Shown: positions 38,601 to 59,600, counted from the stretch's first letter. The stretch is 64,000 nucleotides of DNA from an uncultured Spirochaetota bacterium (GCA_963734545.1 CAVTHO010000010.1:64001-128000), one strand, 5' to 3'. Program-made: numbers and translations. The notes: generated by a model not told the origin, from the letters alone.

Positions 38601-41600
38601 TTGCCGCGGCCGGAACGACCACGGCGCCCAGGAGCACGTCCTCCAGGTCCGTGGCCTCGATGCGGATCACCAGCGTCACGTCGCGGACGAGCTGTCCCGT
38701 CACGGGCGCCGCGCTTTCAGCTTCCAGGATGGCCTCGTAGCGGGTCTCCGCGGTTTCCCACTCGTAGCGCATGCCCAGGAGATTCACGTTCTGGGAGGTC
38801 TTCTCGATCTCGAACTGGTACCCGAGACTCGTGAACACGAGCTTCCCGGCACGCAGCACGGCGTTGATCGGGGCAAAAGGACCGGCGTCCAGGGCGGCGT
38901 TGACATCGTCCACGAGGTCGTCCAGTCCCGCATTGTCCAGGGTCGAGGCCGCGGTGATGAGCACGGACGGAGCATCGACGACTGTTCCGCCGGCATCTTC
39001 CATGCGAATGTCCAGGGTCACGTCGGCCGCGAGCCGGCCGCCGGTGGGCAGCGGCTCGTCAGCTTCGATCTCCGCCGGCAAATAGTAGATGACCGAGCTC
39101 AGGACCGGCGCCAATCCCAGGAGGTCCAGGTTCCGCGAGCTCGGGAGGATTGCGAAGTCGTACGGAGCGTCAATGAGGATGCTGCGTCCCAGCCAGCTGA
39201 CATCCAGGTCGCCGAAGGATGCGCTGGCGTCCAGGAGACCGTTGATGTGCACGATGATCCCCACATCGGGCGCGACGGGGTATTCCGTCCGCACATCCAT
39301 GCCGGGGATGAGCACCGTTGCCGTGGTTTCGACCCCGTCCACGCGCTTCCACAGATCGAGCGTGACCGGCACCGGCAGGACGCCGCCCAGCAGGAAATCG
39401 CTCTCGCCGACGATTCGGGCCAGGGGACCCTTCACCCAGGTGTCTGGCTCGATTTCATAGAAGTGAGTCGGTGTCAGCACCTTGATGGGATCCGGCCCGC
39501 TCAGGACCACCCGGCCGTTCTCCCCCCAGGTCTCCACGAGGGCGGACCCGTATATCAGGACGCTCACGTTCGTGAAGTTGAAGGGATCCGCGGGGTCCCC
39601 TTCCGCAGGGTCATCACCGCCGGTGAGCTCGATCAATCCGCCCGCCCGGACCACGGTGCCGATCCTGACCTGGTGCCCCGCCGCAATGCGGATGGCCGTG
39701 TGGGAAGCGGCGGTCCCGAAATCGAGCAGCTCGGACCCGATGTAGCCCCCGGTCTCTGAGTCGCGGATATTCCTGACCTCGCCGCCTGCAATCAGGTGAC
39801 CCTCGATTTCGGCGTCGTTCACCGCGACGATCGATATCAGGCTGTAGTCCCGGCGGGTCGTGATCTCGCTTGCGCCCTGGATCCGGACCCCGATTTCTCC
39901 TGCAATGAAGGGATGCGCGGCCGTATCCACGTTTCGAAGCTCGATATTGTCCTTGGCAGTGATGTAGCCGCCCGTGACCAGGATGTCGCCGAAGAGGGAG
40001 TAGAGCGCCTGGATCTCGTAGCGGGAGGAGCCGGGCAGGGTTTCATTGGCCTCCAGCTCCCCGCCTGCCAGCCCAAGAAGATCCTGGTGAACGGAGTCAG
40101 CGGTGATGGCGAAAGGATTCTCGGCCACGAACACCAGCCGGCTGTTGCGGATCTGGATGTCGATGACCCCGCCCGCCATTCCGGACAGGGCAGCAGAAAG
40201 CTGGTCACGCAGCTGCGCGAGTGAGGCGTTGTTTTTCGTCTGCGCCTTGGTGAGAGTGATGGATCCGAGCAGGGTCCCCTCCCCATCCTGGAAGAACAAT
40301 GTCACGTCTTCAGCAAGCTGGACCTGGCTCCTCATGTTCCGGGTCCACCCGCCGATGAACACCTGCCCCGGAGACTCGATCCTGACGTCGCCGCCCACGC
40401 TCGTGTCGAAGTCCACCGACTCCTTGATGAGGTTTCCTTCCGCGTCCAGGAGAAGGGACTTGCTGGCGCCGGAGTAGATGTGCCCCATCATCTCGACGCC
40501 GCTCTCGCCGTAGAGGGAGACCAGGCCGTGGGACCCGTCGGAGGTCCGACCCGCCGAGGTGATCCCGCCCGCCGTATTGATGATGACGCTGACCCGGCCG
40601 CCCTCCGAGCCCAGGCTCACGTCATCCGGCCCGGCAGCTCCGCCCGTCACGGTCACCGAATCGCTGGCCAGGAGCCCGGAATCCAGGTACACCTGCTCGC
40701 CGGCAGCGACCACGATGTCCGAATCCGTCCCGGACCAGATGACGCCGCAGGGGCCGATGGAGCCGCCCGCCACGACCGTGCCGAAGATATCAACGTCTTT
40801 GGCGCCCCAGATATGCACGTCGCTCCCGTTCTGGAATGAGGTGATGACGGCTGTGGCTTCCACCAGGACGCTGCTGACCAGGTCAAGGTCGAGGTCCCGG
40901 GTTTCTCCCCGGCCGTACACGTTGATGCCGTCCTCCACCTCGACAAATGAGGTGGCGAACTTCACCCGCTGGCCGGAATCGATCAGCAGGCCGGCGCCCT
41001 TCCCGCGAACGAAGATGCTTCCCTCGATGATGATGTCGTCGGGGCCCTCCAGCCGGAGCAGGCTGTTGTCGGCCAGGGACATCAACTGGCCGGTCAGGTG
41101 GATGCTGGCGCTCACCGGGTCGCGGTCGTTCCAGTCCTGGTCCACCGCGCCCCGCAGGTCCATGACGTCGCTGGAGGTGATGGCGCCGTAGATGCGCAGC
41201 TCGTGCGGTGTCCGGATGACCACGTCGGCACCGGGACCGGTCAGGGCCTTGACCCCTCCCTGCCACTCGACGCCGGCCAGGATCTCCCCATTGATGTAGA
41301 CCGCCTCGGGCGCCTCGATGTGGATCAGGCTCTCGGCGTCCCGGGAGGAAATGACCCCGGCGATCTGGACGAGCTCGAAGAAGGTGCCGGGAAGGATCGT
41401 GATCCGGGCGTTCTCGCCGCGCACGATGGTGTGGCCTTCCAGCACCACGGAGTTTTTCGTGATGATCTCGATGACGCCGCCGTCGAGCAAGGTCTCGATC
41501 GTGCCGGCGACGCCCTGGATGACGTTGTTGAGCCTGCGCGTGTCGTCCTCCACGCTGCTCATCATGGGAGAGACGTACGATTCACCGTCGCCCTGGATGT

Positions 41601-44600
41601 TGACGTAAATGCTGCCGTTGGTCCTCAGCCATCCGTCGACGATCATGCGGTTGCGGACGCCGTCCAGAACCAGCAGGTCGCCCGTGATCCCCGAATCTGT
41701 GCCGCCCAGGGGGTTGTTGATGTTCTTGGACTTGATGTGGAGCCGGTCGGTGTTGACCTCGAGCGTGACGGGGGGCTGGCCGGGCGTGGCGCAGGCCTGC
41801 ACCTCGCCTTCGATATAGATCCGCCGTGCGTTGAGGATCACGTCGTCCCGGAAGGAGGAATCGCGCACCCGCGGCCGGCCGTCGTACTTGACGACCGCTG
41901 CGTTCATGGCGTCACCGAAGGTCATCCTCTCCGTGGGGTTCAGGGCCAGCGGGTCCGCGTAGTCCTCGCCGATGGTGATGAGGGTGAACCCTTCCTTGAT
42001 GGCGGACAGGTCCCGGGTGGAGAGGTGGACCGTGTTGGCGAAGAGGCTGCCGTCGTTGTTGTATGTGGCCTCCAGTCCCTCGCCGGTGAAATTGCCGCCC
42101 ACGTGCGCGGGGAAGTTCGTGAAGCCGGGATAGGTGTCGTGGATATAGGTCCAGTCGTTCCCCAGCTCGTGCTCGGCAGCAGTCCCGAGGATGAAGTCGG
42201 TAGCCTGCATGGCCTTGAGGAACAGCCGGCCCGTCCCGATCACGCCGCCGCGCGCCCGAGCCGGGTCAGGGTCACGCTCATACGGGGCGCTCAGGAAGTC
42301 GAAATCGTCCGCGGTCAGGGTGATGTCCATCCCCGGCGCCCGGGTGATGATGCTCCCCGTGTGCAGCGTCAGCCGCGCCCCCACGCCGTTCAATGTGACC
42401 GTGATGATCCCGTGGGCGCTGGAAAGCCCCGCAGGGTTGAGCGCCGGGACATCCGCCACGGGCACGCCATAGACAACGAGACTGTCGGTTTCCTCGATGA
42501 CGATCTCGCTGCCGGCAACGGCTCCCTCATCGCGAGTGAACACGGTGATGCCGGCAACCGTCGTGATGATTGTGTTCACGCTGCCGGTCGAATAGTTGAG
42601 GATGTCGTCCGCCGCAATGATGAGGTGCGTGCCCGCGCCCAGGAACCTCATGTTGTTCCGCATATACAGGGAGCCTTCGGCCACCAGCTTGATGGTCCCC
42701 CCGCCCAGGTTGTCCGAGTTGTCTCCCGAACCGGAGGTGATGTCGGCCCGCAGATCGATGTCCGAGGGCAGGGCATTGTTGGCTGTGTGGATATCGAGCC
42801 GGCCGTTGTTGATCGCGTTGATCGGGACCGTGACCACCAGGCCGCTCACCCTGATGATCCAGTCAAGGTCGTGCGCGTCGATGCGGTGCGCGATGGTGCC
42901 CGCGGCGTCCGCGACGCCGTTCACGACCGTGGCGCTCGTGCCGACGCTGTCAGCCGTGATGTCGAAGTCACCCGTGGCGTGGACCGTTCCGTTCAGGATC
43001 ACGTCCTCTACAGCGGTGAACACGAAGCTGTCTCCGTCCAGCCGGGGCTCGACGGTCAGGTTCCGCGCGGTCACCACGAGATCCGTGGCCCCCATCACGA
43101 CCCCGGCAGGGCCGTTGGTGGAAACGATGGTCAGGTCGCGCAGGTGGGTGGTGGTCACGCCTGCCGCATCGATTTCGGACTCCTCCACCGGCAGCGTGAC
43201 CTGCTCCAGGCCGTCGGTGAACTGGATGATCTCGCGGCCGCTCACGATCTCGTGGTCGTTGAACTCGAGAATGTCCGGAAGCGTGTCATTCGGCTGGATC
43301 CCGGGGATGTTCCGCAGTATCAGCTCGTCGAAGGCCGTGTCGTTGTCCAGGAGCCGGATCGTGCCGTCTGCCTTGGTGGAGGTCTGACGGCCGAGCTCGA
43401 AGGTGATGGTCGAGGCTCCGCCTGCGTCCTCGATCTCGATGACCCGCTCCGGCGGCTCCTTGATGGTGACGATGTCGTTTCCCGTTCCCAGGACAATCCG
43501 GGTCACGTTCGAGCGCCCGGCCTTGAGCTCGACCCCGGCGGTTGCGACGGTGATTCCGGTCTTGTTGATCTGGACCGTCAAGCCCGTGGTCACTGCCGAG
43601 AAGTCGAGGACGGTAACGCCCTGGGCGTCGCGGAAGGTGTCCTCCCCGAAATCCGTGGCAAAGACATACGTATCGGCCCCGTCACCGCCGCTCAAGGAGT
43701 CGACGCCGGAGCCTCCGTCCAGGATGTCGTCCCCGCCCAGGCTGGTGAGCCGGTCGTCACCCGCGCCGCCGCTCATGGTGTTGTTCCCGGCTCCTCCGGT
43801 CAACCTGTCGTTGCCGGGACCGCCGTCCAGTGTCATGTCTCCCGTGGTGCCGGCGCCCAGCCCGGCCAGGGTGTCATCCCCGGGGCCGCCGATCAGGATT
43901 CCGCCTGCGTTCCCCGCGGTGAGCTTGTCGCTGCCTTCCCCGCCGTCGAACTCGACCGACACTCCCACCAGGCCAGACGCGTTGAACACGTCGTCACCCG
44001 CGCCGCCGTCCGCGATGACCTTGGTGAAGCTGCCGGTGCCGCTCTCCGGGAAACGGTGGCTCCATTCGCCGTACTCCACGGTGATGGCACTGGCATCCCC
44101 GGTCACTGTGAACTTCTCGCCGCCGTCCGTGGTATCCAGGTACTCGCGATCACCTGCCCGCTTGCCGGTATGGAGAATCAGGGTCCCGGCCTCCTCATGC
44201 GCCAGCACCGGCTGGACCTTGGGCGCCTTGTATTCCCATTCCGCCAGGGTGATGTCGAAGATCTCCCAGTCCACCACGCGCTTCATGATCTTGCCGACGA
44301 ACGGGATGGACACTCCCACGTCCACGAACACGTAGGCTTCGAAGTACGCGCGGCCGTGCAGGTTGAAGAGGTTCAGGAGCCCTCCGGGGGCGTCGTAGCC
44401 GGTGTAGTTCCACATGGTGATGAGCTCGGACACGCGGATCTTGCCGTCGTCGTTGATGTCCTGGAGGTCCAGGCCCGCCTCGAAGCCGATGTCCCCGCCC
44501 AGGCCCGCCTCCACGACGAGCGCCCAGATGGAGGCCTCCACGCCGATCTCGATGCCGAAGGTGAGCTCGTCCTTTTCCTTGCCCTTGTTGTCGCCGCTCA

Positions 44601-47600
44601 GGCTGTAGTCCGATATGAAGAATCCGTCGAAGGCTTCCCAGGCGTTCCCGGTCTGGATGGCGCGCCTGATGCCGTAGGTGTCGTAGCCGAAGCCCAGGTC
44701 TGCCGTGATGCGGAACCCGCCCTTTCCGTACACATTGATCACGACCGGGCCCGCGGTGATGGAAGCGATCTGCTGGAGGAAGCTGAGCTCATATCCGAGA
44801 AGGGGCATCTCGTAGGTCAGGAGCGTCGCGTCCCCGCCCGTCAGGAGCTTCATCCAGTTCCCGATGTCGGTGAGGTAGTCGATGATCTCGAAGCCGCTGC
44901 GCTGCTCCGAGATGGTCCCGCCGCCCGCGCCGGTCTGTATCGTCTCGCCGCCCAGGCTCATGTTCTTGATGTCGTCCAGGAAAGACTTGAAGTCGCTCAC
45001 CAGGGAGTTCTCCGCCTGGACGGCCGAAGGATGGTCGGTGCCGAGGCCGAGGATGTTGCCCAGGAGGATGTCCCCGTTCGTGCCGAGCATCTTGTCCACC
45101 GTGAGGGTGAGGTCGATCATGTTCTGCACTGCGTACAGGAAGGCGGGCGGCATCTCGGGATAGCCGAAGAGCGAGGCGATCTTGTTGATGAGGCCCAGCA
45201 GGCACGGCGGATCGACCAGCACGTCCAGCCCGGGGACAGGCGTCAGAAGGATGTCGACCACGATCCCGACGGGCTCCAGGATGTCGGCGATCTTGTCCAC
45301 GATGGGCTTCAGGATGTCGCTGATGAAGCTTCCCACCTCCAGGCGCAGGTTGTTCAGCCCGATTTCGGGCTCCTGAGCTCCGTCGTCCAGGCTCCAGCCC
45401 CAATTCGCCACGAGGTCGGCCCGCAGGCGCGGGAGGCCCTTTGCGCCCTCGATTTCCAGGATCAGGTCGAGCTTCAATGTCGCGTCCACGCCCAGGTTCA
45501 CGTTGAAGAGATCGTCCATGGGCGTGGAGAGGAGCCGGTTGAAGGTGAGCCGACCGGTGCCCGGCTCGCCCGACACGTCGATGGAGAGGAACCCGAAGAG
45601 GCCGCTGGGCTGGAACCCGTCCTTGGCCGGGTCGCGGTCCGCGTCCCGGGCGGTCACCTTGAAGAACAGCAGCACGCCTTCGGCGACGAACGGAGTGACC
45701 ACGGCGTTGTCCAGGGGCTTGCCGTCCAGGAAGGCGCCGATCTCGACCTCGATTTCAGGGTCGCCGGGATTGTGGGTATCGTTGGTGACGAGATAGAACC
45801 CGTCCGCCAGGCTCAGGCCCATGCCGAAGTCGAAGGTCCATGACATCTGCACCGCGAACCCGCCGTCCACCTGCAGCCCGAAGCCCGGCAGGTCTATGTC
45901 CAGGGGGATGTCCACCCCGGTCCCGAACACGATCCCGCCCAGGGACACCTCGAACTGGATGGCATCCGCGTCGGAGTCGTACCCGTCGCTCTCCTGGGGC
46001 ACCTCGTCGCCCAGGACCCACGCTTTCAGCAGGTTTCCGTTCTCGTCGTACCAGCCGACCATGATGTCGGAGATATCGATCCGCCCGTCTCCGTTCCCGT
46101 CCAGGACGATGTCCAGACCCGAGGGGCCGAATACATCCCAGATCGCGTCGCGAATGTACTGGATGGCCGCCCCGGGCCTTTCCAGCTTGGCCCGCAGCTC
46201 CGCCAGGAACCCGAGGCGCAGATCCCGGATGAAGGTCGCGGCCTGTGCCAGCTTGTTCCCCACGATGGGCAGGTCGACCGCCAGGTTGGAGCCCAGCACG
46301 TCCTGCACCGCGCCCAGGGCAAAGTCCACGCCGTCCAGGATGTAGCCGGGGTCGTTGAGGATGCTCAGAAGCGAGAAGTCGGGCAGCTCGAGATTCGGAA
46401 GCACCACGATGACCGCGTCCACGGTGCCCGTGGGGGATCCGGCGAGCCTGCGGAACACCTCCAGGAGAGCCTGCTCACCGTACCCTGCCGGGCTCGGCGC
46501 GGCGTTGGTGTAGACGTGGACCGGGTCCAGGTCGAAGAGGCCGGGGATTTCGACCGGCAGGAGAATGTCGAACCCGCCCTTCAGGTCGTAGTCGAGATTG
46601 TCGAGGATGCCTTCGTCCAGGAAGTGGAACCGGCCGTCGTCCGCGACAGGGCCCGACCGCTGGTTGATGGACAAGGTGAACGTGGCGAAGTCCACGGCGG
46701 TGACGACCGCGCCCTCCGTGTAGAAGGCGCCCCCGGCCCCGTAGGTGAGCCTCCCCAGATACGCCGAGCCGCCCCGCACGCCGATCCCGAAGGGCTGGAA
46801 CAGCAGCTCGAGGTTTGTCCCCTCCACCTTCAGGCCGATGGTGACTCGCGTTCCCGTGTCGTCGGCGGGGGAAGAGTTGCCCTGATCCTCAAAGTCGAAG
46901 AGGAAGAAGTCCACGTTCCCGTTTTCGATGTCGCCGAAGTCGATCCCCACGTCGACGACCATCTCGACGAAAGCGTCCCAGGAGATGTCGGCCCCGGCAG
47001 ATACCAGCTCGTCGATGAACCCCCAGCCGGTCCCCGTGCTTCCCGTGAACATGCCGATGATATCGCCCAGGTTGAAGGAGAAGCTGACGTTCATCATGTC
47101 TTCGGAGAGGATGTCCGAGAGGACCTTGTCCCACTCGATGTGCAGCTTGAGGACCGTCATGTCGGCCAGTGACAGGGAGAAGACCTGCTGGTCCGGCGCG
47201 AGGCTGTTGTTGTCGTGAATGCCCAGCGCGTCCTCGATGATCACTTCGACTTCCTGGATGGCTGCCGCGGGGTTCTCCGCCGCCGTCTCGAGCTTGTTCA
47301 GGAGGTTATCGACGAAATTGAAGGCGTCGCTCACCCTGCGGTTGATGATGGGGATTTCCTGCTCGTAGAAAGGAGTTTCCTTCAGCGCCGCCTCGATGAA
47401 CTGCACGCCGGAGCGGATGGCCTCGATGATGTTCTCGAAGCTCAGGTCCTTGAAGCCGAACGAGCTCCCGAAGTCGGGAAGAACGAGGACCACGTGCTTC
47501 GCCGCGATCCACTGATCGAACTGCGCCTGGTTGTACTCGGTGTCGAGGACCGTTTCGATATTCGACCACTCGGTGAGGTCGGGAATGGTGAGGGAGATCT

Positions 47601-50600
47601 CCTTGCCGGCCAGGGCGCTCGTGTCGAGGAGAGGAATTTCCGGCTCCACCGCGAGGCCTTTCAGCTTCGCCTGGGCGTAGCCTTCAAAGTCGAAGTCGAG
47701 GGCGTCGATGAGGTCACCGCTCACGAGATCCAGGAGAGAGAAGGTCCGGTCGTTCTCCGTGGCAAGGTTGCCGTCCGCGTCGAGAGTCAGGGTGGCCCGG
47801 GCCAGGAGGTGCACCCCGCTGCCCGTTCCCGGGCCGCCCGCCGTGAGGCTTACGAACCCGAGCCGGGCAAAGAAGGCGAGGTTCTCGAGGTCCAGGGACG
47901 CCCGGCCGGAAACGTGGGCATTGTTGATGAGCACGCTCAGCCCCTCGCTCCCGGTCAGGCCGTCGAAATCCACGATCCATTCGAAACCGCCTTCCACGGT
48001 GACCTTCAGGTCGGCGACGGCGGAGGTGCCCAGCTCCAGCACGTCCCCCAGATCGAACCCGAGGTTCAGCGGGAGGCCCTTGATGTTGAAGAGGTCGACC
48101 TCGAAGGAGGCCACGTCGCTTTGCGTGAGCAGCCCCACGTCCACCAGCTCGTACAGGTCGAATCCGTCGAAGCTCAGTTTCCCGGCCTCCACCAGGTCGA
48201 GGTCGGAGAGGTTGGACCGGCCCAGGAGCCCCGCGCCGATCAGGTCTGCCAGGGTGACGCCGAGGGTATCCGACGCCAGGAGGTCAACGAGGTTTATTGA
48301 CGATTCGGGGATGACACCGGCCCCGATGAGCCCCTTGCCGACAAGGTCGGCCACGGCGAGGCTCACGTTGGTGAACTCGGATCCCCCGATGAAGCTCATG
48401 TCGATGAGGTCGGACAGGCTGTACAGTTTCAGCCCGGTCAGCGCGGTCATGTCCACCCAGTCGGCCTGCTGGAGCTCCGTCGTCAGCGCCAGGCTGCCGT
48501 CGGGTTTGGTCGCGTACAGCGAAACGTGCAGCTTCAGCAGGTCCGCCCCTGTCATGAGACGGGAAGCGATCAGGGCGTCATAGGGGATTTTCAGGCCGGT
48601 CTTCAGGCTCGTCGCGGAAACAAGGTCGGCGTCCAGGAGATCGGTCAGACGGACCTTCACGGCAGTCGAGGAAAGGAGCGCGGACAGGGAGATCGTCGAC
48701 CCGGTCAGCGCGCCGGGGGAAACGAGCTTGAGGCTCTCCAGGGACGAAATCGACAGGGAGGTGGCGGGGGCGAAGGAATCGGCCGTGATCAGGTCCCACT
48801 GTGCCAGATCGCGCAGTTTCACCAGGGGCAGGTTCAAAAGCCCGTCCAGGAGAACGTCCTTGTCAAACTCCTGCGACGGGTTGATGGCGCCAAGCTCGAG
48901 AAGCTTCGCGAAATCCGCCCGGCCCAGGTTGTTCAGGTTCCGAAGGTTGAAGCTGTTCAGGAGGAAGTTGAAATCCACCGGCAGGTGAAGGCTTCGCGTT
49001 GCAGGATCGTAGACGGCGTCAAGGCCGGCAGGCAGGATTCCCGCCCTGGTGAACTCTTCAACAAAGCCCTGGACGGTGTTGATCCTGGCCAGGTCGATCC
49101 TGGAGAATACCTGCTCGTTGAAGGTGGTGGCGAAGTCGAAGATATCGCCCAGGGTCTTGTTGACGATGGGGATTTCGGTGGACATGAAATCCGAACCGCT
49201 CACGGACTCCAGCCAGTCCAGGGTGTTCTGGATCATTGCAATCAGTGAGCCGAGGTTGAAATCGCTGAAATCAAGGAGGGATTCGAGGTTCTCGTGGGTG
49301 AGAGCGAGCGAAGGGCCGCCCGCTTCGGGGAAGAGAGTGCCGCTCAAGCCCACGCGGGGCGGCGCGCGGGGATCACCGAAACTGACGCCGCCAAGGTTCG
49401 CGAAGACGGGAAGGTCCACCTCGATGTAGTTGTTCCGCGTTCCGGCGCTGTTCATGGTCGGGGCAAAATCAATGCCCGCGCTCTCGTGGTAGGAAACGGT
49501 CGCTCCCAGGTCCAGGGACAGATTTCCTTTTTCTCCGTCGGCCTTGCCTATCGAGATGTCCAGGGGCCCGATGGCGGCGCCCAGGACCAGGTCATCAACG
49601 GACGCGTGACCCTGGAAGGTCAGATGGTTTATGGAGAAGGAAGCTTCGTCGGTTTCCCAATTGAAGGAGAAGCTCAAGGACAGATCCATTGCCAGAACGA
49701 GATTCACCTGGGCATCGCCGTCCAGGACCAGGCCGATGGTCTGGGCCGGCTCACCCAGATTGATGCCCATGGTGCGCTGATAGGTCGACGCAGCATCGAA
49801 GGTGACGCTGACCCCGACAATGGCGTCCGAAGCGTTCCGCTGGGGCTCCCAGGCCAGCAGGCCGTTACCCCCGGCCAGGCTGGGGAGCCAGTACTTCTCG
49901 AGGTACGTGAAGAGGCCGCCGATGGTGGGGCCTCCCGCACTGTAGAAATCCTTCTCCGGGTTCCCCGCCTCCTCCTGCCCCAGGGGGATGCTCAGGTCCC
50001 GCTCGAATGTCCCTGTCGTCAGGTACGGACGCAGGTAGTGCTTGATGTACTGGCCGAGCTGCAGCAGGTTGTCGAGCCCCAGGAGGCCCACGAGCGAGGA
50101 ATCGGTGCCGGGAATGGTCTTGTTGAGGAACGCGTTTCCCTCCGCGACGACGTTTCCCCGGTTGTCGTAGCGCGTGATGAACTGGTCTTTCAGGTCGAGG
50201 ATCTGGTCACCGAGCAGGTCCAGGGCCGCGAAGGCCAGGTCGTTCAGGATCCCGCCGATTTCCCTCAAGTCTGCCGTGAACCCGGGGGAAAGCTCACCGT
50301 CGTAGAGGTCAGTGTCCCCGAATCCGATGCTTCCGAGCGCCACGCCCGTTCCGCCCACCGAGGCGTAGAGGGGCAGGAAAACGAGCACACGGTTCTGGAA
50401 GGCATTGTGGGCCTTGTCCTCCTGGTGGTTGAAGCTGAAGGCCCCGGCGTCAAAGGTTACGCTTCCACCCAGCTCAATCTCCACCCGGCCGGCGTGGTTG
50501 GTGTGCAGGTCGATTGCCTCGTAGCCCAGGCCGATCTCGATGTCGGGGGCACTGAACGATCCTGAGAACTTGAACTCGTCGAAGTTGAACGCGAACTCCC

Positions 50601-53600
50601 CGGTAGAGAGATCCACCCCGAAGTCGAACCTCAAGGCCGTGGAGACGGACACTGCGAGGTCGACCTCGGCGTCGAGCGCGAGCCCCACGCCGCCCAGGTT
50701 CTCCGCGATGGCGAGGGTCACAACGTCGGCAAAGGAATAGGCCCCGTTGAAGGAGATTCCCAGGTGGCTGCCGGCCATCGTCACGGTCAGGAAGTCACCG
50801 CCCACGCCGGTCGAAATCCCCGGCAGTGTCGGGACCCAATGGGCGGTCAGGAAGGACGCCAGGCCGTTCCAGATGTCCGCCGGCGTGACATCTCCCGTGG
50901 CCACCGAGCCCGGCCCGATCCAGGACACCGTGTCGAGGTAGGCGAACACATGGGTGTCGATGTCGAGAAGGGCCTCGATCCCATTTCCCGCGCCGAAGAA
51001 GCTGTTCAGGTCACGGTCGATCCCGGGGATCGTCAGGTCGAAGAACCCCGAGCCGAGCAGGTCCTGCTTCAGGCCCCGAATGAGCCCTGCCAGGTCTTCC
51101 AGGAGTCCCCGGATCACGCTGTCCGCCAGGTTGCCGAGGGCGCCGGCGATGTCGGGAGTCGTGATGATCACGGGATCATAGGGGCCCGGGTTGAGGTTCA
51201 CGATGTGCCGGAAGACCTCCTCCAATCCCGTGTTGATGCTCCCCTGATAGAGAGGATTGGTCCGAATGCTCAGATCCGGCGACAGGGGTATCACGGTCCC
51301 GAACACGTCCAGGGTCAGGGGCAGAACGACTTCCAGGCCGCCGTTCACGCCCGCGAACTGGACGTTGTCCAGGAGGTTCTCCGTGGCGAAGTGGAACCTC
51401 CCGTCCGACAACGGATCTGCCGGATCCAGCACGAAGGCAATGGTAACAAAGTCCGACCGGTCGGCGGGATCCGTCGCCTCCGGGTTCGTGGACGCGTCCC
51501 CGTCGGCGTCCATGGTCATCGTTCCCGCTGTTACGCTCAGACCGATGGAATCGAAAATGCTGAACGACAGGTCGAGGTTCTCCGCGAGCAGCTTGAACCC
51601 GGCATCCACGCGCGTGCCCGTCTGCTCGGCGTCGTTCCAGTCGTAGAGGAACTTGTCGGCCGACCCGCCCGATGCCCGGGGCCCAAGGTCAATTCCGGCC
51701 TCGATTCGAACCCGGGCGAATGCGCTCACGCGGACGGTCCCGCTGCCCTCCAGGGCCACCAGGTCGTCGATCCCTTCCAGGCCGGGGAGACTCCCGCCGA
51801 CGAGACCCTTGAACAGACCGAGATCGAAATTGAAGGGCGTGCTTTCCTCCACGTCCTCTTCCAGCTTGAACCGCAGGCGAAGGACTGTGCCCTCCATGAA
51901 GACGGCGAAAACTGCCCCTGCTGTCTCGAAGTTCAGACCCAGCTTGTTCAGGATCAACCCTATCAGTTTCTGGATGTCGTTCTCCGGGTTGTACAGCTCA
52001 CGCTCCACGGCGTTCACGGCATCATTCATCATTCCGATGAAGGCCAGGATCTCGCGCGGGGATTTGTCGATCAGGGGGATCCTGAGGTCCTTGAAGGCAT
52101 CGTAGATCGGGGAGTTGGGATCCGTGACCCAGAAGGGAAGCCGGTCAAAAGCCTTGAACGCGTAATCCCGGGCCCTCAGGATCATGGACAGTATGTCCTC
52201 GATATGGAGGTACTGGTAGAAAGTGAAAGCAGCGGGGAGGTTTGTCAGGTCGAGGGTCATGTAGCCGGGGGCGGTCCGGGCACGGGCCAGATCGCTCACC
52301 ATGAGCGTGACTCCGCCATCGTCCGACGCGGGGATCCCGCCTATGCCCGTGTTCACCTTGATTCCGAGCAGCGTCGCCTGCGCCTCGCCGGTCACAGCGC
52401 CGTGAAGGATGGAAGCGACATCCAGCCCCGAGAGGGACGAGATCAGGAATTGCCGATCGCCGGCGGTCGCAAGGTCACCGTCCTGGTCGGGCACCAGGGT
52501 CTGCGACACGTTCACCCGGACAAGGCTTCCCGGTGCGTATCCCAGTGTCACCCCCACGAATCCGAGCCGACCCGCGGCCTCGAAGTCCGTCACCTCGAAA
52601 GATACCGACCGTGTGAGGGACGCCGCGTCCACGGAGTACGTCAGCTCCCCTTCGGTCGGACCGCCGGTCTCCCCGTCAAAATCCACGACATAGTCGAGCT
52701 GTCCGGACACCTCGACCAGGAGGTCTGCCAGCGCCGTTGTCCTCAGACCCACCAGGTCGAGGCCGTAGTCACCTGAAAGGTCGAGGGCCGCACCGTTCAA
52801 GCCGAAGTATTGCAGGGCGTGGCTGTCCACCTCGGCGTCCCCCACAAGACCCAGGCTCACGAATGACGCCAGGCTGTCCAGGTCGTTCAGGTTCAGGAGG
52901 CCGCGGTCGCCGAGCTCGTTAAGGGAGAAAGACGGGGTCTTGAGATCTGCTGAGACGAGCAACCCATGGGCAGCCAGGCTCCTCAGAGAAACCAGTTCCT
53001 GATCGAGAAGGGCGTCCTTGTCCACGGTGGCCGAGGCGCCGAGATAGGAGGGATCCACCACGCCCGCCTTGACCAGATCGCTGAACCCGGCAAGTCCGAG
53101 GGAGAGAAGGCTCCCGGCCCCGTTCAAGAGAACCTCGTCGTTTCCGGCGCCCGTGATGACGGCGGCCTCCTGGAGGATTGCCCGGTCGAACATCCGGGAC
53201 GAGGCCACATCGTCCAGCGACCGGGCCGTCACAGACCGGCTCAGGTCGCCGAACCCGACCAACCCGTCCGCAACGAGTCCCTTCAGGGACACGAGTCCGG
53301 ATCCGAGCAGCGCCTGGAGGGACACCATACCGTCCGGTCGGATCAACCCCAGGGCGTTCAAGGCCGCCGTTGTGACCAATCCCGAGCCCGTGAGAGCGGC
53401 AGGGCTCAAGGCCTTGTTATTGAAGCGGCTCTTGCCCACGAGGCCTTGATCCACCAGCTGGGGAAGCTCCGCGCCGTGGCGAATGATCAGATCGCCGGGA
53501 TTCAAGAATCCCCAGTCGATCAGGTCCCCCAGGTAGATCGTCTCCAGGACATCGTAGAGAAACACCTGATGCGCGCTGATGTAGTTGTTGAGGTCCCCGT

Positions 53601-56600
53601 TCTCGAACAGGACGGATTCCTCGAGCTTCACGATATCCAGGCCCATGCCGGGGTCAGCCAGGTCGGCGGCATCCACGAAGTCCCGGCGAATCAAGGACAG
53701 GAGCGTCACGCCCTCCAGGTCCAGCGCCACCAGGGTCCGCACGGGCACCGCGGCACCCAGGGTGTCGGGGACATCCACCGCGAAGGCAGTCTCGATGTCG
53801 GCCGCGTTCAAACCGACGTCGACGAAATCATCCAGACCGACAAACTCGTAGCCGACATACTCGGCGAGGGTCAGGTCGTAGAGAATGGAGCTCAGGAGCG
53901 TGCTGAGAGGGACCGTGCCCAGGTGAACGATGCCATCGAACTGACCGTCCGTGAAATGGGCGGATCCCTCCAGGTCGCTTTGCTCGAACACCTTGTTGAC
54001 GAAGTCCTGCCGGGAAAGAAGGCCGCAATCCACCAGGGATGCCAGCGTCACGTGACTGTCGGCAAGAAGGTCCTCGAGGGAAACGAAGCCATCGGTGCCC
54101 ACAAGATCCTGCTCAACGATGTACTTCTTTCCCACCACGCCGGAATCCAGGAGCTTCTCCAGGGGTACATGCCCGTTCGCTGCCAGGTCCCCGGCGTCCA
54201 CGAGCCCCGCGTGCACAAGCTGCCACAGGCTGACGGCGCTCTGCTTGTAGAACTGGGCCGGGTCCACCAGGCCTTTCTCGACAAGGGCGTCAATGGAAAC
54301 CAGGTTTTCAGCGAGGAATGTTTCAAGGTCTATGGGGCCTGAGTCACCGTATCCGAGAGTTGAAAGGGCATTGCGAGCGACGATATCCGAGGTCAGAAGG
54401 TCCGGCAGAGGAAGGGTGGGTACGAGTAGAGGCAGCGCCGAGGGCGGCCCGCGAGCAAGCTCGTGCAGGCTCACCATATCCAGCGCCAGCAGGTCCGACA
54501 CGCGCACATAGTCCGGCGCCCCTCCCTCGCCCTCCTGAACCAGGTTATTCTGCTCGAGCTCCCGGATCGAGACCTTCGCCGCGGCCAGAAGGTCGTCCAC
54601 GGTGATCGTCGCCGCGCTCAGGTCCACGTCGTCGGCCGTCACGAGACCGGCAGAAACCAGGTCCTCCATGGTCAGAAGGCTTCCACTCAAGAGATCGGAG
54701 ACGGCGACAACATCGTTTCCCGCGCTGTCCTGTGTCACCAGCCCGTCCAGGAGGGCCAGCTCGAGGAGGTCCGACTCAAGGAGAGCCTGCCGGTCCAGGC
54801 TGCCCTGCACGAAAAGATCGGCAAGCAGCACTTCGGGCAGGTCATCGTTCAGGTCATTCACGGTGATGAGCCCCACCCGGACCAGGTCTTCCATGGTGAC
54901 GGAGGTGTTGGCCAGCAGCAGGGCCGCGGTGACCCGGTCACCGTGACGAATAAAGCCCAGGCCGTCGAGCTGTTCGGTGATGGTACGGTCAAAACCGAAC
55001 AGGCGCAAATCCGCGGCCGGAAGGTCAGCCAGGCGACCGCGCTCAAGCAGTCCCTGGTCGACCAGGTCTCCCATGGTCAAAGAGCCGGCGGACACGATTT
55101 CGGGTATGGACCTGCGTGTCGTCATGCTCTTGTCGATGACCCGGGAGCTCAGGAGAGCGGCTTTATCCGCTTCACCCAGCGGACGGAGGTTGTCGTGGGT
55201 GAGGATCTGGAAGTATACGAGCTGGCTCAGGGTGATGGGGCTTTGCTCCAGCAGCGCACCGAGGTCGATGATGGAGCCCGGGCCGATCAGCCCGCCGTGC
55301 GCCGTGATCGCGGTGAAAAGGGAAGAGGCCTTGGCCATGATGTCCGAGGTGCGCAGCTTGTCCAGCAGCACCTCGGCCGGCAGGATAAGATTGCTCCGGG
55401 CCAGGTCTCCCAGATCGGCGAGGCCAGAATCGACAAGGGCGCTCAGGTCGATGTCCTCGATGTTCAGCGCGGAGATACCCACGAGCCCCGCGTTCACAAG
55501 ATCGTCGATTCCCGCCAGACCGGAGCCCAGGACAGCCCCCAGGTCGAGGGACTCCGTGGCCAGGGCGGACACGTTGAGCAGGCTTTCGCCGACCAGCTCG
55601 GCCACGTTCGTCAACCCCGATCCAAGAAGGGACGAAAGGGAAAGCTGGCTCAAGGTCAGATTGCCGGCGGAAACAAATCCGGCCCCGATCAGCTCTTCCA
55701 GCGTGATTACCCCGGAAGCGGCCAGCGCGTGCAGGGAAACGCTGCCGGAATTGTTGAGACCCTTGTAGTCCAGCTCGAACTGGGTTGCCAGCCCTGCCGC
55801 AACGAGACTCGCCGTGCTCAAGGTCGCGTCCGCGAAATCAGCGGCCTGGACCAGGTTCTTCTTCACGAGCTCGGTTAAGGTGGCGACCCCGCGGGAGAGG
55901 ATGCCGCTGACGGGCAGGAGGGTTGACGGAGTGAAATCGGAGGCGGCAATCAATCCTTCCCGGACAAGATCATTGAGCTGGACAGCGGCCCCGGAAATCA
56001 GGTTCTGGATGTTCACGAGGGCCGCTCCGGCAAAATCCCCGGCCTGCAGCAGCCCTTCGCTCACCAGGTCCCCCAGCGCCACCACGCCCGAGGAGAGAAG
56101 CTCGGTCAGCGACAGCTTGTCCAGGCCGATGCTCCCCAGGTTCAGCAGCCCCTGGTCGAAAAGGCTCCCGAGCGAGGTGACTCCGCTGCTCAGGAGATTC
56201 TGCAGGTCCACCAGATCCGTGGTTTCTATCATGCTTGTCAGGTCGATGCCGTAGTCGGCGAGCCTGGCCGCCAGGGCGTTGATGTCGCTGACAAATCCCA
56301 GCTTCGCGATAACACTGTCATAGGTAACGAACCCGGCATCCACCAGGTCCCCGAGGGTGACGAGCCCGGAATCTATGAGCTCATCCATGTCCACCGTGCT
56401 GCCGTAGGAGGCCAGGCTCCGTGTGCCGATGATCCCCGCGTCCGCCAGCGCGTTCAGGTTCAGGCCGCCCCAGTTCGCGACGGATTCAGGAGAGAGCAAC
56501 CCCAGCTCGGCAAGCCGGGAGAGGGTGACGAATCCATGGTCAAGGAGGTCATCCATGTCCACCAGGTCGCTGACCTGGACGAGGCCTTCCTCGACCAGGA

Positions 56601-59600
56601 GGTCCACGTTGACCCAGCCCAGGGCGTCCAGATCGCGAAGCCCCAGCTGGTCCAGCTCAACGTCGAAAGCCAGGGGAAGAGTGAGCGCCTGGGCGGCAGG
56701 ATCGTATGTGGCGGCTTCCCCCGACTTGAGGAGACCGGACGCATCCACGGCAGCCACGAAGTCCTGGAGTGTCTCGACGCCCTCGATATCGAGCTTCGAG
56801 AGCATCGCCGCTTCAAAAGCCGCGCCGAGATCAACCACCTCGGACAAGGAGCGGCCCAGGAACGGCACGGCGACGTCGAGCCCGGCGGAGCCGGCAGAGG
56901 CATCCAGCCAATCCAGGAAATCCGCGATGCCGCCAACTGCCGCGGAAAGGTCGAACCTGCCGAGGCTCGCAAGCTGGGCAAAGTCTCCGGAACCTGTGAT
57001 GGCGGGATCAGCCCCGCCGAAGAGCGTCCCGCTCACATGGATGGTCGGCCGCGCGCTCCCGCCGCCCGTGACGTCGGCCTGGTCCGCCAGTGCCGCGTAC
57101 ATCGGGAGGACAACGTCGAGGGTGTTGGCGGTGAGGCCAAAGGGATTCGACGTGACTGCGCTCGGCGTGAATACGAATTGATCTCCGCTCAGCGCAACAT
57201 CACCGCACACGTTCAGGGTCGCTGTTCCCAGGGTGCTGCCGACGCCTCGTCTCCCGACACTCGTCTCCAATGTTCCCACCCGGGCAGCGGAAAGCAGCTC
57301 CGTTGCACTCGCCCCGGAATCAATGTGCAGCCCGGTGAGGATGAACTGCGTCCCGCCGCCGGCCAGGTCCACCTGCAGCGTGAAGTCCACGTCACTGTCT
57401 CCGACAATCGGAACGGCGATTGTTCCTGTCAGGTCCAGCCCCAGTGCCTCGCCATAGCGGCTCAAGTCAAGGACAAGCTCTTCGTTCTTGATGCTCAAGT
57501 CCGTGCCGGTGAAGTGGATGCTGAGCCGGCCGTCGCTGACCCCTACAGTGATTGTCTTCGTGCTGTTGGAGAGGGTCGGGAGCCAGTTCGTTTCCAGATG
57601 GAGCTTCAAGCCGCTCAAGGTGGGCACGCCGCCCGTTGCGATGTAGTCACCGGCCGGAAGGAGACCGGCCGCGGCGCCCTCCCCGGCAGGATGCAGATAA
57701 GGTCTCAGGTAGGATTGAACGTAGTCACCGATGGACAACAGATTGTCCATCTGGGCCAGCTCGCTGAGGGAGAGACCGACCCCCGGGATCTCCCGCGTCA
57801 AAGCCTCGTCGCCGCGCGCATTTACCCCGAGGGCGGTCACGAATTGCCCCAGGGACTCGATGTACGTGGCCATCCTGGTCAGTCCTATCTCAGCCGGCCG
57901 GAACTTGACCACCAGGCTCTCGCCGACAGCCGGAATGACCTTGACGTCCGCGGAAGGCACGGCGCTGCGAACGGACAACGCAAGGGACTCGTCCTTGACC
58001 AGGACCTGGGCTACTGTTGCCCCGCCGGCTCCCCCGCTCAAGGCAGATATGAAGGACGCCTTGACGGCGGCATCGGTTACGCCAATCGTCTGGAATTCCA
58101 CGGTCAGTCCGGGCTGGGACTTGAACCCCGCAAGCTCGTCCCCCGCAGAATCGGTCTGCGCCAGGCTGCTGACTCTCAGTATCGTGGCATGGTACACCGT
58201 CGCTGCTGCTTCGAAGGCGCTGTTCAGCCAGTGCACACCGTATCCCGAAGCGCCGGCGCTCACGGTATGGCCCGACGGCGAGATGGCAACCCAACGGGGA
58301 GCGTTGACGTGGTTGAACCACTCCACGGTCAACAGGGCGTCCAGCGAAAGCCTGTACTGCGAATAGTCGGTGGGGTCAGCGGGGAAATCCAGCTGAATGC
58401 CGATGGCCCGCTGGAACGCGGCAAAAGAGGACGCTGTCAGGTCCTGGAAGATGCCGTCCACCTCGAGGAAGTTCCCCTGGTGGTCCCGGTACCCCAGGTA
58501 GTTGAGCCTTTGCTGGATCTTGGCGACCTGGAGCGGGGTCAACTGAGAGATCTGCTCCGGGCCGTCGATGGCCATGGCCCCGGTTCTGGAATCAGCCGGA
58601 CAACACGTCGAGGGGGACCCTCGTCTGGCTTTCCCCTGTCCCGTAGACTATCCAGATCCGTCCCTGGAATCCCGGGCTGCTCGCGCAATCGTCTCCGGGC
58701 AAGCCGTCCCGGACGCCGGGAGCCAGATAGAGCATTCCGCTCGTTGCGAAATCCACCGGCAGGTCCCAGTCGTTTCTGTCCGCGAAGATCACGTAGCCGA
58801 AGTTCACCGTTTGAACGGTCGCCGGATCGATCACCGTCAACGTCCAATCTCCGCGGAGCGGGTTTTCGCTCCTGGCAACGGTCACGACTTCTATGCCGCG
58901 CATCACCTCGAATGCGAGCTGCGTCTTGTCAAAGCTCGTCGCGTTCGTGCAATCCGACAGGTCGATCGGGATCATGTCGCCGGTCCGGGGGCCGTTGTCC
59001 GTGACGATCAGGCGGACACCCGGCTCAAGGGGCGCGGCCATTACGGCCAGCTCACAGCTCGCGCCAAGACCCAGCACAACGCCCATCTCGCGCATGACGA
59101 CCGAAAGCAGATCAGGGCGATCCATGGCGTCGGTCCCCTGGCTTGCCCTCAGGGCTGTTCCGAAGGGCTGGAGCGTAAACTCCAGATCGTCAGCCGGGGT
59201 TGGATCGACGAACCAGCCTGTCTGGCCGCCCCAGGGATCCAGCCTCACGCGACGGGCCGCTGCGTCTGTTGATGCAAGATCGTCGCCCAGGGCGGCGATC
59301 TGGAAAGTCACTCCCTCCAACAGCGTCCGAGGATCGGTTCCCGAAGGTCTGAAGGCACTCCACCGGTTGATGGCTTCCGCCACGATGGGGGAAAGCCTTG
59401 CGGCATTGATCGCGAACATGAGCCGCGCACACTGGATCGACGTCCCGGGGAGTTGTACGAGCTCCCCTGCAGCGTCGACTCTCACCACCTCACCCGTGCC
59501 GGGGACCCCGCCGAGGCCGGGCGCTCCGCCGCTGCAGTCGACATTCCCGCTTGTGATCGATCCGCTGTGGCTCGTCAGCGTGACCGCGCCCCCGTTCCCT

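Follow-up and report, generated by a model that had tools for sequence, protein, structure and literature searches.

A rare leucine-rich repeat (~33 residues) in a giant protein of an uncultured Spirochaetota bacterium: a probable portable binding module

We found that two tracts of a single giant protein are built of a leucine-rich repeat of about 33 residues, which by all the searches described below is rare and uncatalogued. The tracts lie at the same place in two copies of a large duplicated module. According to profile matches, a 215-aa stretch of the longer tract is a self-contained domain that also occurs alone in the blade hairpins of FG-GAP propellers. Because this cassette is found on its own in the propeller domains of other large proteins, the repeat piece is probably a portable binding module.

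The window, that is, the whole 64-kb stretch of DNA analysed, holds the entire repeat region within the coding sequence of one minus-strand ORF, where its features are arranged as follows (window positions, then residues of the giant protein).

21223..58575, minus strand: giant ORF, 12,450 aa, containing both modules and both tracts
51022..57846, minus strand: module A (aa 244-2518), with four collinear BLAST segments to module B
57571..57795, minus strand: IPG...DNLL...YLRPYL...WLP.L block, copy A (aa 261-335), within the first of these segments
56626..57159, minus strand: pre-flank A (aa 473-650), ending in YDPA..L.LP..F; 36-43% identity in five loci, 31% to pre-flank B
52876..56643, minus strand: tract A (aa 645-1900), about 27 units in about 1,255 aa, by unit HMM and motif counts
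55435..56076, minus strand: discrete cassette domain within tract A (aa 834-1047), by FG-GAP-cassette HMM
51976..52803, minus strand: post-flank A (aa 1925-2200), with A.ADL.V.V.G.....VDFDG.TG; 42-49% identity in five loci, 33% to post-flank B
50314..51054, minus strand: partial third copy of the module start, without a tract (aa 2508-2754), similar to aa 2813-3068 (E 2.6e-10)
46258..50184, minus strand: module B (aa 2798-4106), by BLAST against module A
49876..50118, minus strand: IPG...DNLL...YLRPYL...WLP.L block, copy B (aa 2820-2900), by translation and BLAST
48931..49464, minus strand: pre-flank B (aa 3038-3215)
48091..48963, minus strand: tract B (aa 3205-3495), about 6 units in about 290 aa, by unit HMM, motif counts and profile comparison
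47251..48078, minus strand: post-flank B (aa 3500-3775)

The unit consists of two 11-residue elements, [D/S/T]-L-x-[D/E]-L-[V/L/I]-x-x-G-L-V, and a third part that varies except for a conserved D-[L/F]. Among 142 distinct units, the core leucines (92% at position 5 and 98% at position 16) and glycines (70% at position 9 and 65% at position 20) are the most strongly conserved; position 1 is typically D or S, position 12 T or S, positions 4 and 15 D or E, and proline is confined to positions 24 and 29. We infer that each 11-mer forms a short helix, capped and closed by a glycine turn, so that the array would be an all-helical repeat structure. In the solved structure of MshEN the glycine of a similar motif, h-G-x-x-h-h-x-x-G-h-h, is described as turning between two helices (PMC5013675). 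Hydrophobic moments gave no distinction between helix and strand.

The first-pass annotation had noticed leucine-rich motif tracts of ~1280 and ~280 aa (52800-56650, corresponding to aa 642-1926, and 48110-48950, corresponding to aa 3209-3489), and the following counts confirm them. An iterated unit HMM gave 34 matches at domain E<=1, with 27 in aa 651-1899, six in aa 3243-3489 and one weak match at aa 3613; in a six-frame scan of the full 64 kb, all 30 matches at domain E<=0.01 fell within the two tracts. Of 33 occurrences of the strict motif L-h-x-x-G-[LIVF]-[LIVT] in the 12,450-aa protein, 32 lie in the tracts. Compared with 2,000 composition-preserving shuffles, tract A has 28 occurrences (1.48 +/- 1.24 shuffled) and tract B four (0.32 +/- 0.56 shuffled), counts that no shuffle reached. 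For tract B the signal was weaker with a looser motif (6 occurrences, 1.69 shuffled, reached by 6 of the 2,000). Autocorrelation peaks at 11, 16, 22 and 32-33 residues, and motifs are spaced by 11 residues in twelve cases and by 21-22 in nine. The expansion of one copy, put earlier at ~4.5-fold, agrees with the ratios obtained here (~4.3 in length, ~4.5 in units). Acidity, on the other hand, does not set the tract apart, since its composition (D+E 14.1%, K+R 4.7%) is close to that of the whole protein (13.5% and 5.6%).

Searches with the repeat against Pfam, NCBIfam, PHROGs, PADLOC and PDB sequences returned nothing significant; neither a full-length match to an existing Pfam repeat nor a match to the Pfam LRR profiles was found, and the literature searched yielded no description of the 33-residue repeat. 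The earlier impression that the repeat may belong to no described family is therefore upheld. The unit profile matched only 54 of 1,835,955,588 representative proteins (1.84 billion) at E<=1e-3, and BLAST likewise aligns 49 of these 54 with the giant protein.

BLAST of 400-aa chunks of the giant protein aligns modules A and B over four collinear segments at 28-31% identity: aa 244-431 with 2798-3000 (E 1e-10), 473-794 with 3038-3379 (E 4e-29), 1832-2197 with 3409-3769 (E 2e-22) and 2230-2518 with 3807-4106 (E 8e-20). Self-similarity between the modules had been set beforehand as the test of a large internal duplication; it is significant in all four segments, and by these alignments the two modules are collinear paralogues. 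Other elements of the original proposal also hold, namely the recurrence of the IPG...WLP.L block, with a looser third copy (E 3e-10), and the flanks YDPA..L.LP..F and A.ADL.V.V.G.....VDFDG.TG shared by the tracts, which are present in both modules as well as in orthologous loci. What is not supported is that the repeat was inserted twice. The tract was most likely already inside the module when the latter was duplicated, and was copied along with it, because the paralogous alignments cross the borders between flank and tract at both ends and the first block of tract A aligns with tract B in profile comparison. The repeats are old, since no DNA repeat longer than 46 nt is present in 46258-57846.

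Relatives of the giant protein are found in genome bins of Planctomycetota and Desulfobacterales. From one conserved flank to the other, tract A measures 1,274 aa here, 1,702, 1,702 and 1,705 aa in three other loci and 798 aa in a fourth, as expected of the variable-length insert suggested earlier, whereas tract B is constant at ~290 aa in four of four loci. The variation of tract A comes in blocks of 430-500 aa: three in most lineages, two here and one in a Pirellulales genome bin. Orthologues are collinear along the whole tract at 40-57% identity, and each 293-aa tract stretch has one clear orthologous match (45-49% identity, against ~30% elsewhere). Core unit positions are 61-63% identical between orthologues and 45% between paralogous units.

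FG-GAP repeats are present in 11 of 19 scanned proteins. In such proteins a single cassette of ~6.5 units in 215 aa lies between '...DLNGDG..DLVVGN.GFDL' and '..RIY.N.G.G.F', where an ordinary FG-GAP blade has ~5 residues. The DxDxDG loop is described as the 1,2-loop of the propeller blade (PMC3192720), and therefore the cassette is inserted in the 2,3 hairpin. An HMM of 11 FG-GAP cassettes matches aa 834-1047 of the giant protein with 162.3 bits (E 3.8e-51, model positions 22-236 of 271); the corresponding stretch of four orthologues scores 154-169 bits, and tract B matches the HMM weakly (11 and 15 bits). A tree sets the FG-GAP cassettes (all 13) apart from the giant-protein cassettes (13 of 14), with SH-aLRT support of 87 and 88 for the two groups. 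In other large filamentous proteins the cassette stands alone, in single copy, within one propeller blade. The integrin alpha-I (vWA) domain is likewise an insert in an FG-GAP beta-propeller, and the cassette is so placed in at least 11 related proteins. However, the integrin domain is inserted between blades 2 and 3 and the cassette within a blade; the cassette has no vWA fold or MIDAS motif, and Pfam gives no FG-GAP match in the giant protein of the window itself.

The Pfam and NCBIfam content of the giant ORF is limited to a PG_binding_1-like match at the N-terminus (21.9 bits, under the cutoff of 23), RTX repeats at ~aa 4910-4943 (HemolysinCabind, 32.8 bits) and cadherin-like, Big_9, He_PIG and PKD domains close to the C-terminus; several thousand residues match no catalogued family. 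The ORF at 17588-20692 carries on the RTX repeat array (HemolysinCabind, 128 bits), and the 3' end of the giant gene may be disrupted. Upstream, the adjoining ORF at 58592-61552 has a LEPR-XLL signal (NF012209, 17.9 bits, cutoff 17); one relative (P0061) scores 20 bits with the same profile, and in two loci (L001 and L002) a LEPR-XLL-like motif was read by eye in the ORF that also encodes the modules. PMC8567305 describes PF07595 as a signal for the cell surface in planctomycetes. With these signals and the RTX repeats, export of the giant acidic protein to the cell surface is probable. Its size class, its taxa and the signal in its relatives recall the LEPR-XLL / Planc_extracel giant-gene proteins (PMC5177795), although here the signal is on a separate upstream ORF.

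How might the tracts function? Our preferred reading, to which we give about an even chance, is that they are self-folding helical inserts that stand out from a split host module and offer a surface for interaction, and not in-line spacers. The tract belongs to a host module of ~1,000 aa in a giant, probable surface protein; the module was most likely duplicated with the tract inside, tract B staying at ~290 aa and tract A varying by blocks. A domain inserted in a hairpin has to fold by itself and bring its own two ends together, so the tracts may be read as appendages that bud from the split module and present unit-specific surfaces to a partner or ligand. The reasoning applies directly only to the 215-aa cassette of the FG-GAP proteins and extends to the 1,255-aa and 290-aa tracts by analogy.

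A precedent is provided by RTX adhesins, in which ligand-binding domains are reported to bud from split domains with adjacent N and C termini (PMC12077191). Like such adhesins (e.g. Aeromonas hydrophila AhLap), the giant protein is repeat-rich, carries RTX repeats and has an insert that interrupts the host module at a fixed site, the split-domain geometry here being drawn by analogy. The adjacent termini given there as the hallmark of projecting domains must also be a property of the related cassette. There are differences too: the host module cannot be recognised as Ig-like, a long array of helical type takes the place of the compact CBM, vWFA or beta-roll inserts, and none of the 17 neighbouring ORFs scanned matches type I secretion families (ABC transporter, membrane-fusion, TolC). 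More tentatively, one might speculate that the 11+11+11-residue unit represents a new helical repeat fold, which would make up an insertion domain that is portable and closes on itself. In giant surface proteins of planctomycete type this domain would then serve, either as a single FG-GAP cassette or in block-expandable arrays (up to ~1,700 aa), as a modular platform that binds prey, partner cells or polymers.

It is possible, if rather doubtful, that the tracts are instead in-line spacers, i.e. stiff or elastic helical rods that do no more than set the length or reach of the protein, with the number of blocks tuning the reach. The three length classes of tract A differ by whole blocks, and gain or loss of such blocks between lineages is also expected of a length-setting spacer. 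That conservation is strongest at the core leucines and glycines fits as well, and repeats are described as common extenders in giant surface proteins (PMC7493085). Nonetheless, the indirect evidence tilts against a simple spacer. The same repeat domain is found in the FG-GAP blade hairpin, where its two ends must meet; the length of tract B is fixed; and non-core positions are 36-39% identical between orthologues but 13% between paralogous units. Moreover, the units are not near-identical extender copies, as paralogous stretches are ~30% identical and long DNA repeats are missing.

We regard as unlikely a distant relationship or analogy to plakin (plectin) repeat domains, in which several repeats together form a globular structure with a groove for binding. 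The element h-x-h-x-x-h-h-x-x-G-h-h of our unit is similar to the consensus of the plakin repeat in its first-helix part, and both systems combine a short helix, a glycine and a hydrophobic element, with several repeats per compact domain. Plakin domains are described as globular with 4.5 repeats (PMC4782060; PMC8745463), and the FG-GAP cassette has ~6.5 units. However, the plakin repeat is given as 38 residues, an 11-residue beta-hairpin plus two antiparallel helices, and its groove as basic (PMC4782060), whereas our unit has 32-33 residues with an 11-residue sub-periodicity, leaves no room for the hairpin and belongs to an acidic tract. Four tract pieces gave no Plectin (PF00681) match in Pfam at E<=10, a threshold at which HMMER filters may still drop very weak matches, and PDB sequence/profile searches produced no plakin match for the tract.

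A slim chance is left to a calcium-dependent element, with conserved aspartates binding extracellular Ca2+ and stiffening or folding the tract as in RTX and extender domains. At unit positions 1, 4, 7, 15 and 26 aspartate is more frequent than any other residue, RTX repeats are present in the protein, and Ca2+ is reported to stiffen RTX adhesins (PMC7493085). Yet the unit has no DxDxDG-like or nonapeptide pattern, and Asp at 1 and 26 and D/E at 4 and 15 would fit helix N-caps and capping boxes equally well. Calcium binding could also be compatible with projecting inserts.

Cyclic di-GMP receptor sites of the MshEN type are close to refuted. The hydrophobic-Gly-hydrophobic helix-turn-helix pattern of the MshEN/GSPII motif is similar in shape, and one orthologue fragment (P0060) weakly matches NF053729 (16.1 bits, cutoff 38). 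Against this, the relaxed 24-residue motif, as given in PMC5013675, has no match in the 12,450 aa, the NF053729 and Pfam T2SSE_N profiles have none in the window, the element is shorter by one residue (a motif shortened accordingly has 11 matches, 8 of them in the tracts), the nucleotide-contacting Arg and Gln are absent from the unit consensus, and the setting is presumably extracellular. The first-pass annotation was thus right that the motif fits neither plectin nor MshEN well. Finally, Leu/Asp/Gly-rich low complexity without a real repeat, to which the leucine content (19.7% in tract A, 22.3% in tract B) might point, is refuted by the shuffles and the collinear orthologues, and the regular 11- and 33-residue periodicity also speaks against it.

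To our knowledge, Planctomycetota have many giant surface proteins, which are almost entirely without annotation. The finding has no bearing on a long-standing open question and is mainly for specialists, for whom a rare repeat domain is now defined, its clear boundaries being those of the 33-residue unit and of the 215-aa cassette; the domain occurs in two architectural settings and varies by blocks from lineage to lineage. The unit and the cassette offer a handle on these proteins both for annotation, in the form of a new profile, and for experiment.

Both of the Leu-rich tracts described in the first-pass annotation fall inside a single minus-strand ORF (the giant ORF), whose residue i begins at window position 58575-3(i-1). 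They correspond to aa 642-1926 (tract A) and aa 3209-3489 (tract B), and each lies within one of two modules, which emerged when the protein was cut into 400-aa chunks and these were compared with one another by BLAST:

Window 21223..58575, minus strand: giant ORF, 12,450 aa, holding both tracts entirely
aa 244-2518 of the giant ORF, minus strand: module A
aa 2798-4106 of the giant ORF, minus strand: module B

The two modules are collinear paralogues, linked in this comparison by four segments of 28-31% identity (E 1e-10 to 4e-29). The self-similarity is therefore significant, and the large internal duplication proposed earlier is borne out. The chunked comparison also revealed a partial third copy of the module's initial ~250 aa at aa 2508-2754. 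The quoted flank motifs were found in modules A and B and also in orthologous loci, and the recurring 'IPG...DNLL...YLRPYL...WLP.L' block was found at aa 261-335 and aa 2820-2900, with its looser copy at ~aa 2516. As an observation, the earlier description is thus confirmed as a whole, while its interpretation holds in part. What is not supported is the notion that the repeat was inserted twice. At either end of the tract, paralogous segments (aa 473-794 with 3038-3379, and aa 1832-2197 with 3409-3769) extend across its boundary with the flank, and the first block of tract A aligns to tract B by hhalign (probability 99.9%, E 7e-32, a score that includes the conserved stretch preceding the tract). 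This argues that the tract most likely came with the module at duplication and not through two insertions. Two other parts of the giant protein deserve mention. An unrelated internal repeat zone (window 35656-39228, minus strand, aa 6450-7640) consists of units of ~120-150 aa with 25-35% identity and had no Pfam match in the whole-protein scan. A Gln/Leu/Ser-rich stretch (window 25033-25788, minus strand, aa ~10930-11181) gave weak SMC-like matches of the coiled-coil type, the NCBIfam one (E 2.6e-4) being far under the cutoff.

The repeat itself is genuine. Tract A shows autocorrelation peaks at lags 11, 5, 16, 22 and 32-33. With an iterated HMM, 27 units were recovered between aa 651 and 1899 and another 6 between aa 3243 and 3489, plus one weak match at aa 3613; in a six-frame scan of the window, all 30 matches were inside the two tracts. 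A composition artefact can be rejected: tract A has 28 copies of the strict motif, where shuffled sequences average 1.48 +/- 1.24, and tract B has four, where they average 0.32; 0 of 2,000 shuffles reach the observed count in either tract. The looser motif is weakly enriched in tract B (6 of 2,000 shuffles reach the observed count). According to 142 distinct full-length units from the giant protein and its relatives, the unit starts with [D/S]-L-x-[D/E]-L-[LVI]-D-S-G-L-V, continues with [T/S]-L-x-[D/E]-L-[VI]-x-x-G-L-[VLI] and closes with x-x-x-[D/S]-[L/F] and a variable tail. The best conserved positions are L16 (98%) and L5 (92%), followed by G9 (70%) and G20 (65%), and Pro is restricted to positions 24 and 29. 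The S/T/D-x-x-D/E boxes, each with a Gly-hydrophobic pair 7-8 residues on, appear to resemble helix N-caps and Gly C-caps. In the solved MshEN domain, the Gly of a similar motif is described as forming a turn between two helices (PMC5013675). Hydrophobic-moment spectra do not separate the tract from the control, since the peak near 105 degrees is present in a cadherin-like control region too.

Four long homologues are collinear with the giant protein over >5,000 aa at 41-47% identity and have both tracts; one is named from Phycisphaerae and one is an 'OmpA family protein' from Desulfuromonadales. Among 226 pattern matches (one genome per species), we identified six orthologous loci (35-47% identity), all in genome bins: Phycisphaerae, Mucisphaera, two Planctomycetaceae, Pirellulales and Desulfobacterales. 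The units are orthologous one by one, as aa 786-1078 has a single best match per homologue (45-49% identity versus ~30% elsewhere). Between the flanks, tract A measures 1,274 aa in the window, 1,702, 1,702 and 1,705 aa in three of the orthologous loci (L001, L002 and L005) and 798 aa in another (L006). The insert is thus of variable length, as had been suggested, ranging from 798 to 1,705 aa between conserved flanks of five loci, window included. Mapping of homologues resolves this variation into blocks:

aa ~650-1158, tract A: block I, containing the cassette
aa 1159-1880, tract A: block II
~430 aa, tract A: block III, missing from the window

Block III is present in all five long homologues inspected (P0001 to P0005), and L006 is without blocks I and III. 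Across four loci, the region of module B aligns as one segment of 742-748 positions, and therefore the length of tract B has been kept. The module region has no DNA repeat >46 nt and therefore no sign of recent expansion. Several tract-matching metagenomic 'proteins' (P0019, P0033, P0034 and others) carry Arg/Gly/Pro-rich nonsense tails. Such database fragments look like frameshifted or truncated gene calls, which suggests that the gene family is often fragmented in assemblies.

The repeat is rare. When 1.84 billion representatives were searched with a profile built from 24 units, 54 proteins passed E<=1e-3, of which 26 also passed E<=1e-10. The giant protein was also matched through BLAST by 49 of the 54, most of them orthologue fragments; the five without such a match (P0022, P0031, P0047, P0049 and P0057) look unrelated. 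There is a second class of repeat carriers: 11 of 19 proteins scanned have FG-GAP or FG-GAP_3 repeats, and all eight FG-GAP carriers scanned against NCBIfam have a match at E<=0.01 to LktA_tand_53, a 'filamentous protein' repeat, five of them above the 50-bit cutoff. Single-cassette FG-GAP proteins with LktA_tand_53 tandem repeats are P0013, P0014, P0015, P0024, P0035, P0036, P0050, P0058 and P0062; around aa 530-580, P0050 additionally shows a weak resemblance to a metalloprotease. Each FG-GAP protein has one portable cassette of ~215 aa (~6.5 units), directly preceded by '...DLNGDG..DLVVGN.GFDL' and directly followed by '..RIY.N.G.G.F', at a site where an ordinary FG-GAP blade has ~5 residues. 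Since the DxDxDG Ca2+ loop is described as the 1,2-loop of the blade (PMC3192720), the cassette lies in the 2,3 hairpin. An HMM built from 11 of these cassettes has one full-length match in the giant protein (aa 834-1047, 162 bits, E 4e-51) and scores 154-169 bits at the equivalent place in four orthologues. Elsewhere in tract A the HMM aligns over part of its length at 17-61 bits, and in tract B it reaches just 11 and 15 bits. In a tree of 29 cassette-length segments, one branch (SH-aLRT 87) sets off all 13 FG-GAP cassettes and another (SH-aLRT 88) 13 of the 14 giant-protein cassettes; P0008 forms a long branch.

To sit in a hairpin, a domain has to be self-folding and its two ends have to meet. 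By analogy, the tracts would be helical appendages that leave, and then re-enter, a split host module. The main rival is that the tracts are spacers that set length. Gain and loss of blocks fits a spacer, but it fits appendages too. Against the spacer reading stand the hairpin context of the cassette in FG-GAP blades, the constant length of tract B and the conservation of non-core positions. The last point comes from a constraint test of 21 units against five orthologues. In that comparison, identity is 61-63% at core positions and 36-39% at non-core ones, whereas paralogous units within the same protein share 45% and 13%, respectively. Each unit thus keeps its own surface residues, a pattern easier to reconcile with a defined structure bearing specific surfaces than with a generic spacer.

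Further rivals are a plakin-like, a Ca2+-dependent and an MshEN-like reading. At E<=10 in Pfam, the tract pieces returned no Plectin, T2SSE_N or LRR row, and the LRR candidate was rejected accordingly. The MshEN site was rejected as well: its published relaxed motif has 0 matches across the whole giant protein, whose element is shorter by one residue. At the same threshold there were weak summed scores to Ribosomal_L27A (24.7 bits), RAMA and AF1548-like_C. These are motif-level resemblances; in the first tract piece no single stretch passed. The confident full-length Pfam repeat match that would have spoken against a new repeat was not found. Neither the first 4,150 aa of the giant protein (Pfam and NCBIfam) nor five module-B members (Pfam) had a confident or significant match, and there was none in PHROGs or PADLOC, or to plasmids and phages by tblastn. 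Sequence and profile searches of PDB with the unit, tract, cassette and flanks gave no match under E 0.09, the top ones (uL15 and a winged-helix protein) being motif-level. No description of this repeat was found in the literature, although a word search is blind to sequence motifs and is weak evidence for absence. By these comparisons, the repeat is outside the catalogued families, as had been surmised, and forms an uncatalogued family of its own, used for an insert domain within a protein of known kind.

As for cellular location, the giant ORF is one of several ORFs that may belong together:

58592-61552, minus strand: LEPR-XLL ORF, 986 aa, ending 14 nt ahead of the ATG of the giant ORF
20628-21287 and 17588-20692, minus strand: continuation ORFs, carrying on the same repeat as the end of the giant ORF

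A LEPR-XLL motif (NF012209, 17.9 bits, cutoff 17) opens the 986-aa ORF, whose first 270 aa are similar to the N-terminus of the L001 orthologue. In L001 and L002, a LEPR-XLL-like motif (seen by eye in the translation) is in one ORF with the modules, 450-550 aa ahead of module A, and P0061 bears the name of a LEPR-XLL protein. PF07595, a related motif in Pfam, has been described as a signal peptide for the planctomycete cell surface (PMC8567305). Between the 986-aa ORF and the giant ORF, the minus strand has no site resembling a promoter or terminator, and the one terminator-like match is on the plus strand (58850-58862), within the upstream ORF. The two ORFs may form an operon or be parts of a split gene. 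Upstream of them are a WYL/HTH regulator and an APH-family phosphotransferase (61687-62640 and 62981-63898, minus strand); downstream of the giant gene are glycoside hydrolases GH10 and GH26, a sigma-54 two-component pair and a chemoreceptor. None of these neighbours has an evident link to the giant gene.

The giant ORF ends within a 298-bp tandem DNA repeat (window 20334-21686, 4.5 copies, 96% matches) with a period not divisible by 3, and its final ~36 aa resemble a frameshifted copy of the unit before. Together with the continuation ORFs, it looks like one ~13,700-aa gene interrupted in two repeat copies by an identical 1-nt shift; candidate explanations of the break are assembly error, pseudogene and frameshifting. 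RTX repeats are found mid-protein and in the downstream continuation, and ORF 17588-20692 ends in strong ones (128 bits). The protein is probably exported to the surface and of the planctomycete 'giant gene' type described in PMC5177795. Its N-terminus (window 58393-58530, minus strand, aa 16-61) is PG_binding_1-like at a sub-threshold score (21.9 bits, cutoff 23), and the homologue P0003 is named OmpA family protein; both hint at cell-wall anchoring.

Planctomycete membrane-coat-like proteins combine a propeller with an alpha-solenoid (bioRxiv 10.64898/2026.10.26.761892), but a coat-like reading was set aside because those proteins are described as intracellular coats with a different propeller class. 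A parallel for helical appendages is provided by RTX adhesins, in which ligand-binding domains are reported to bud from split domains, with adjacent termini and the binding site far off the fibre axis (PMC12077191). The arrangement predicted here mirrors that rule of split-domain budding, and the tracts, as appendages, would present unit-specific surfaces to a partner.
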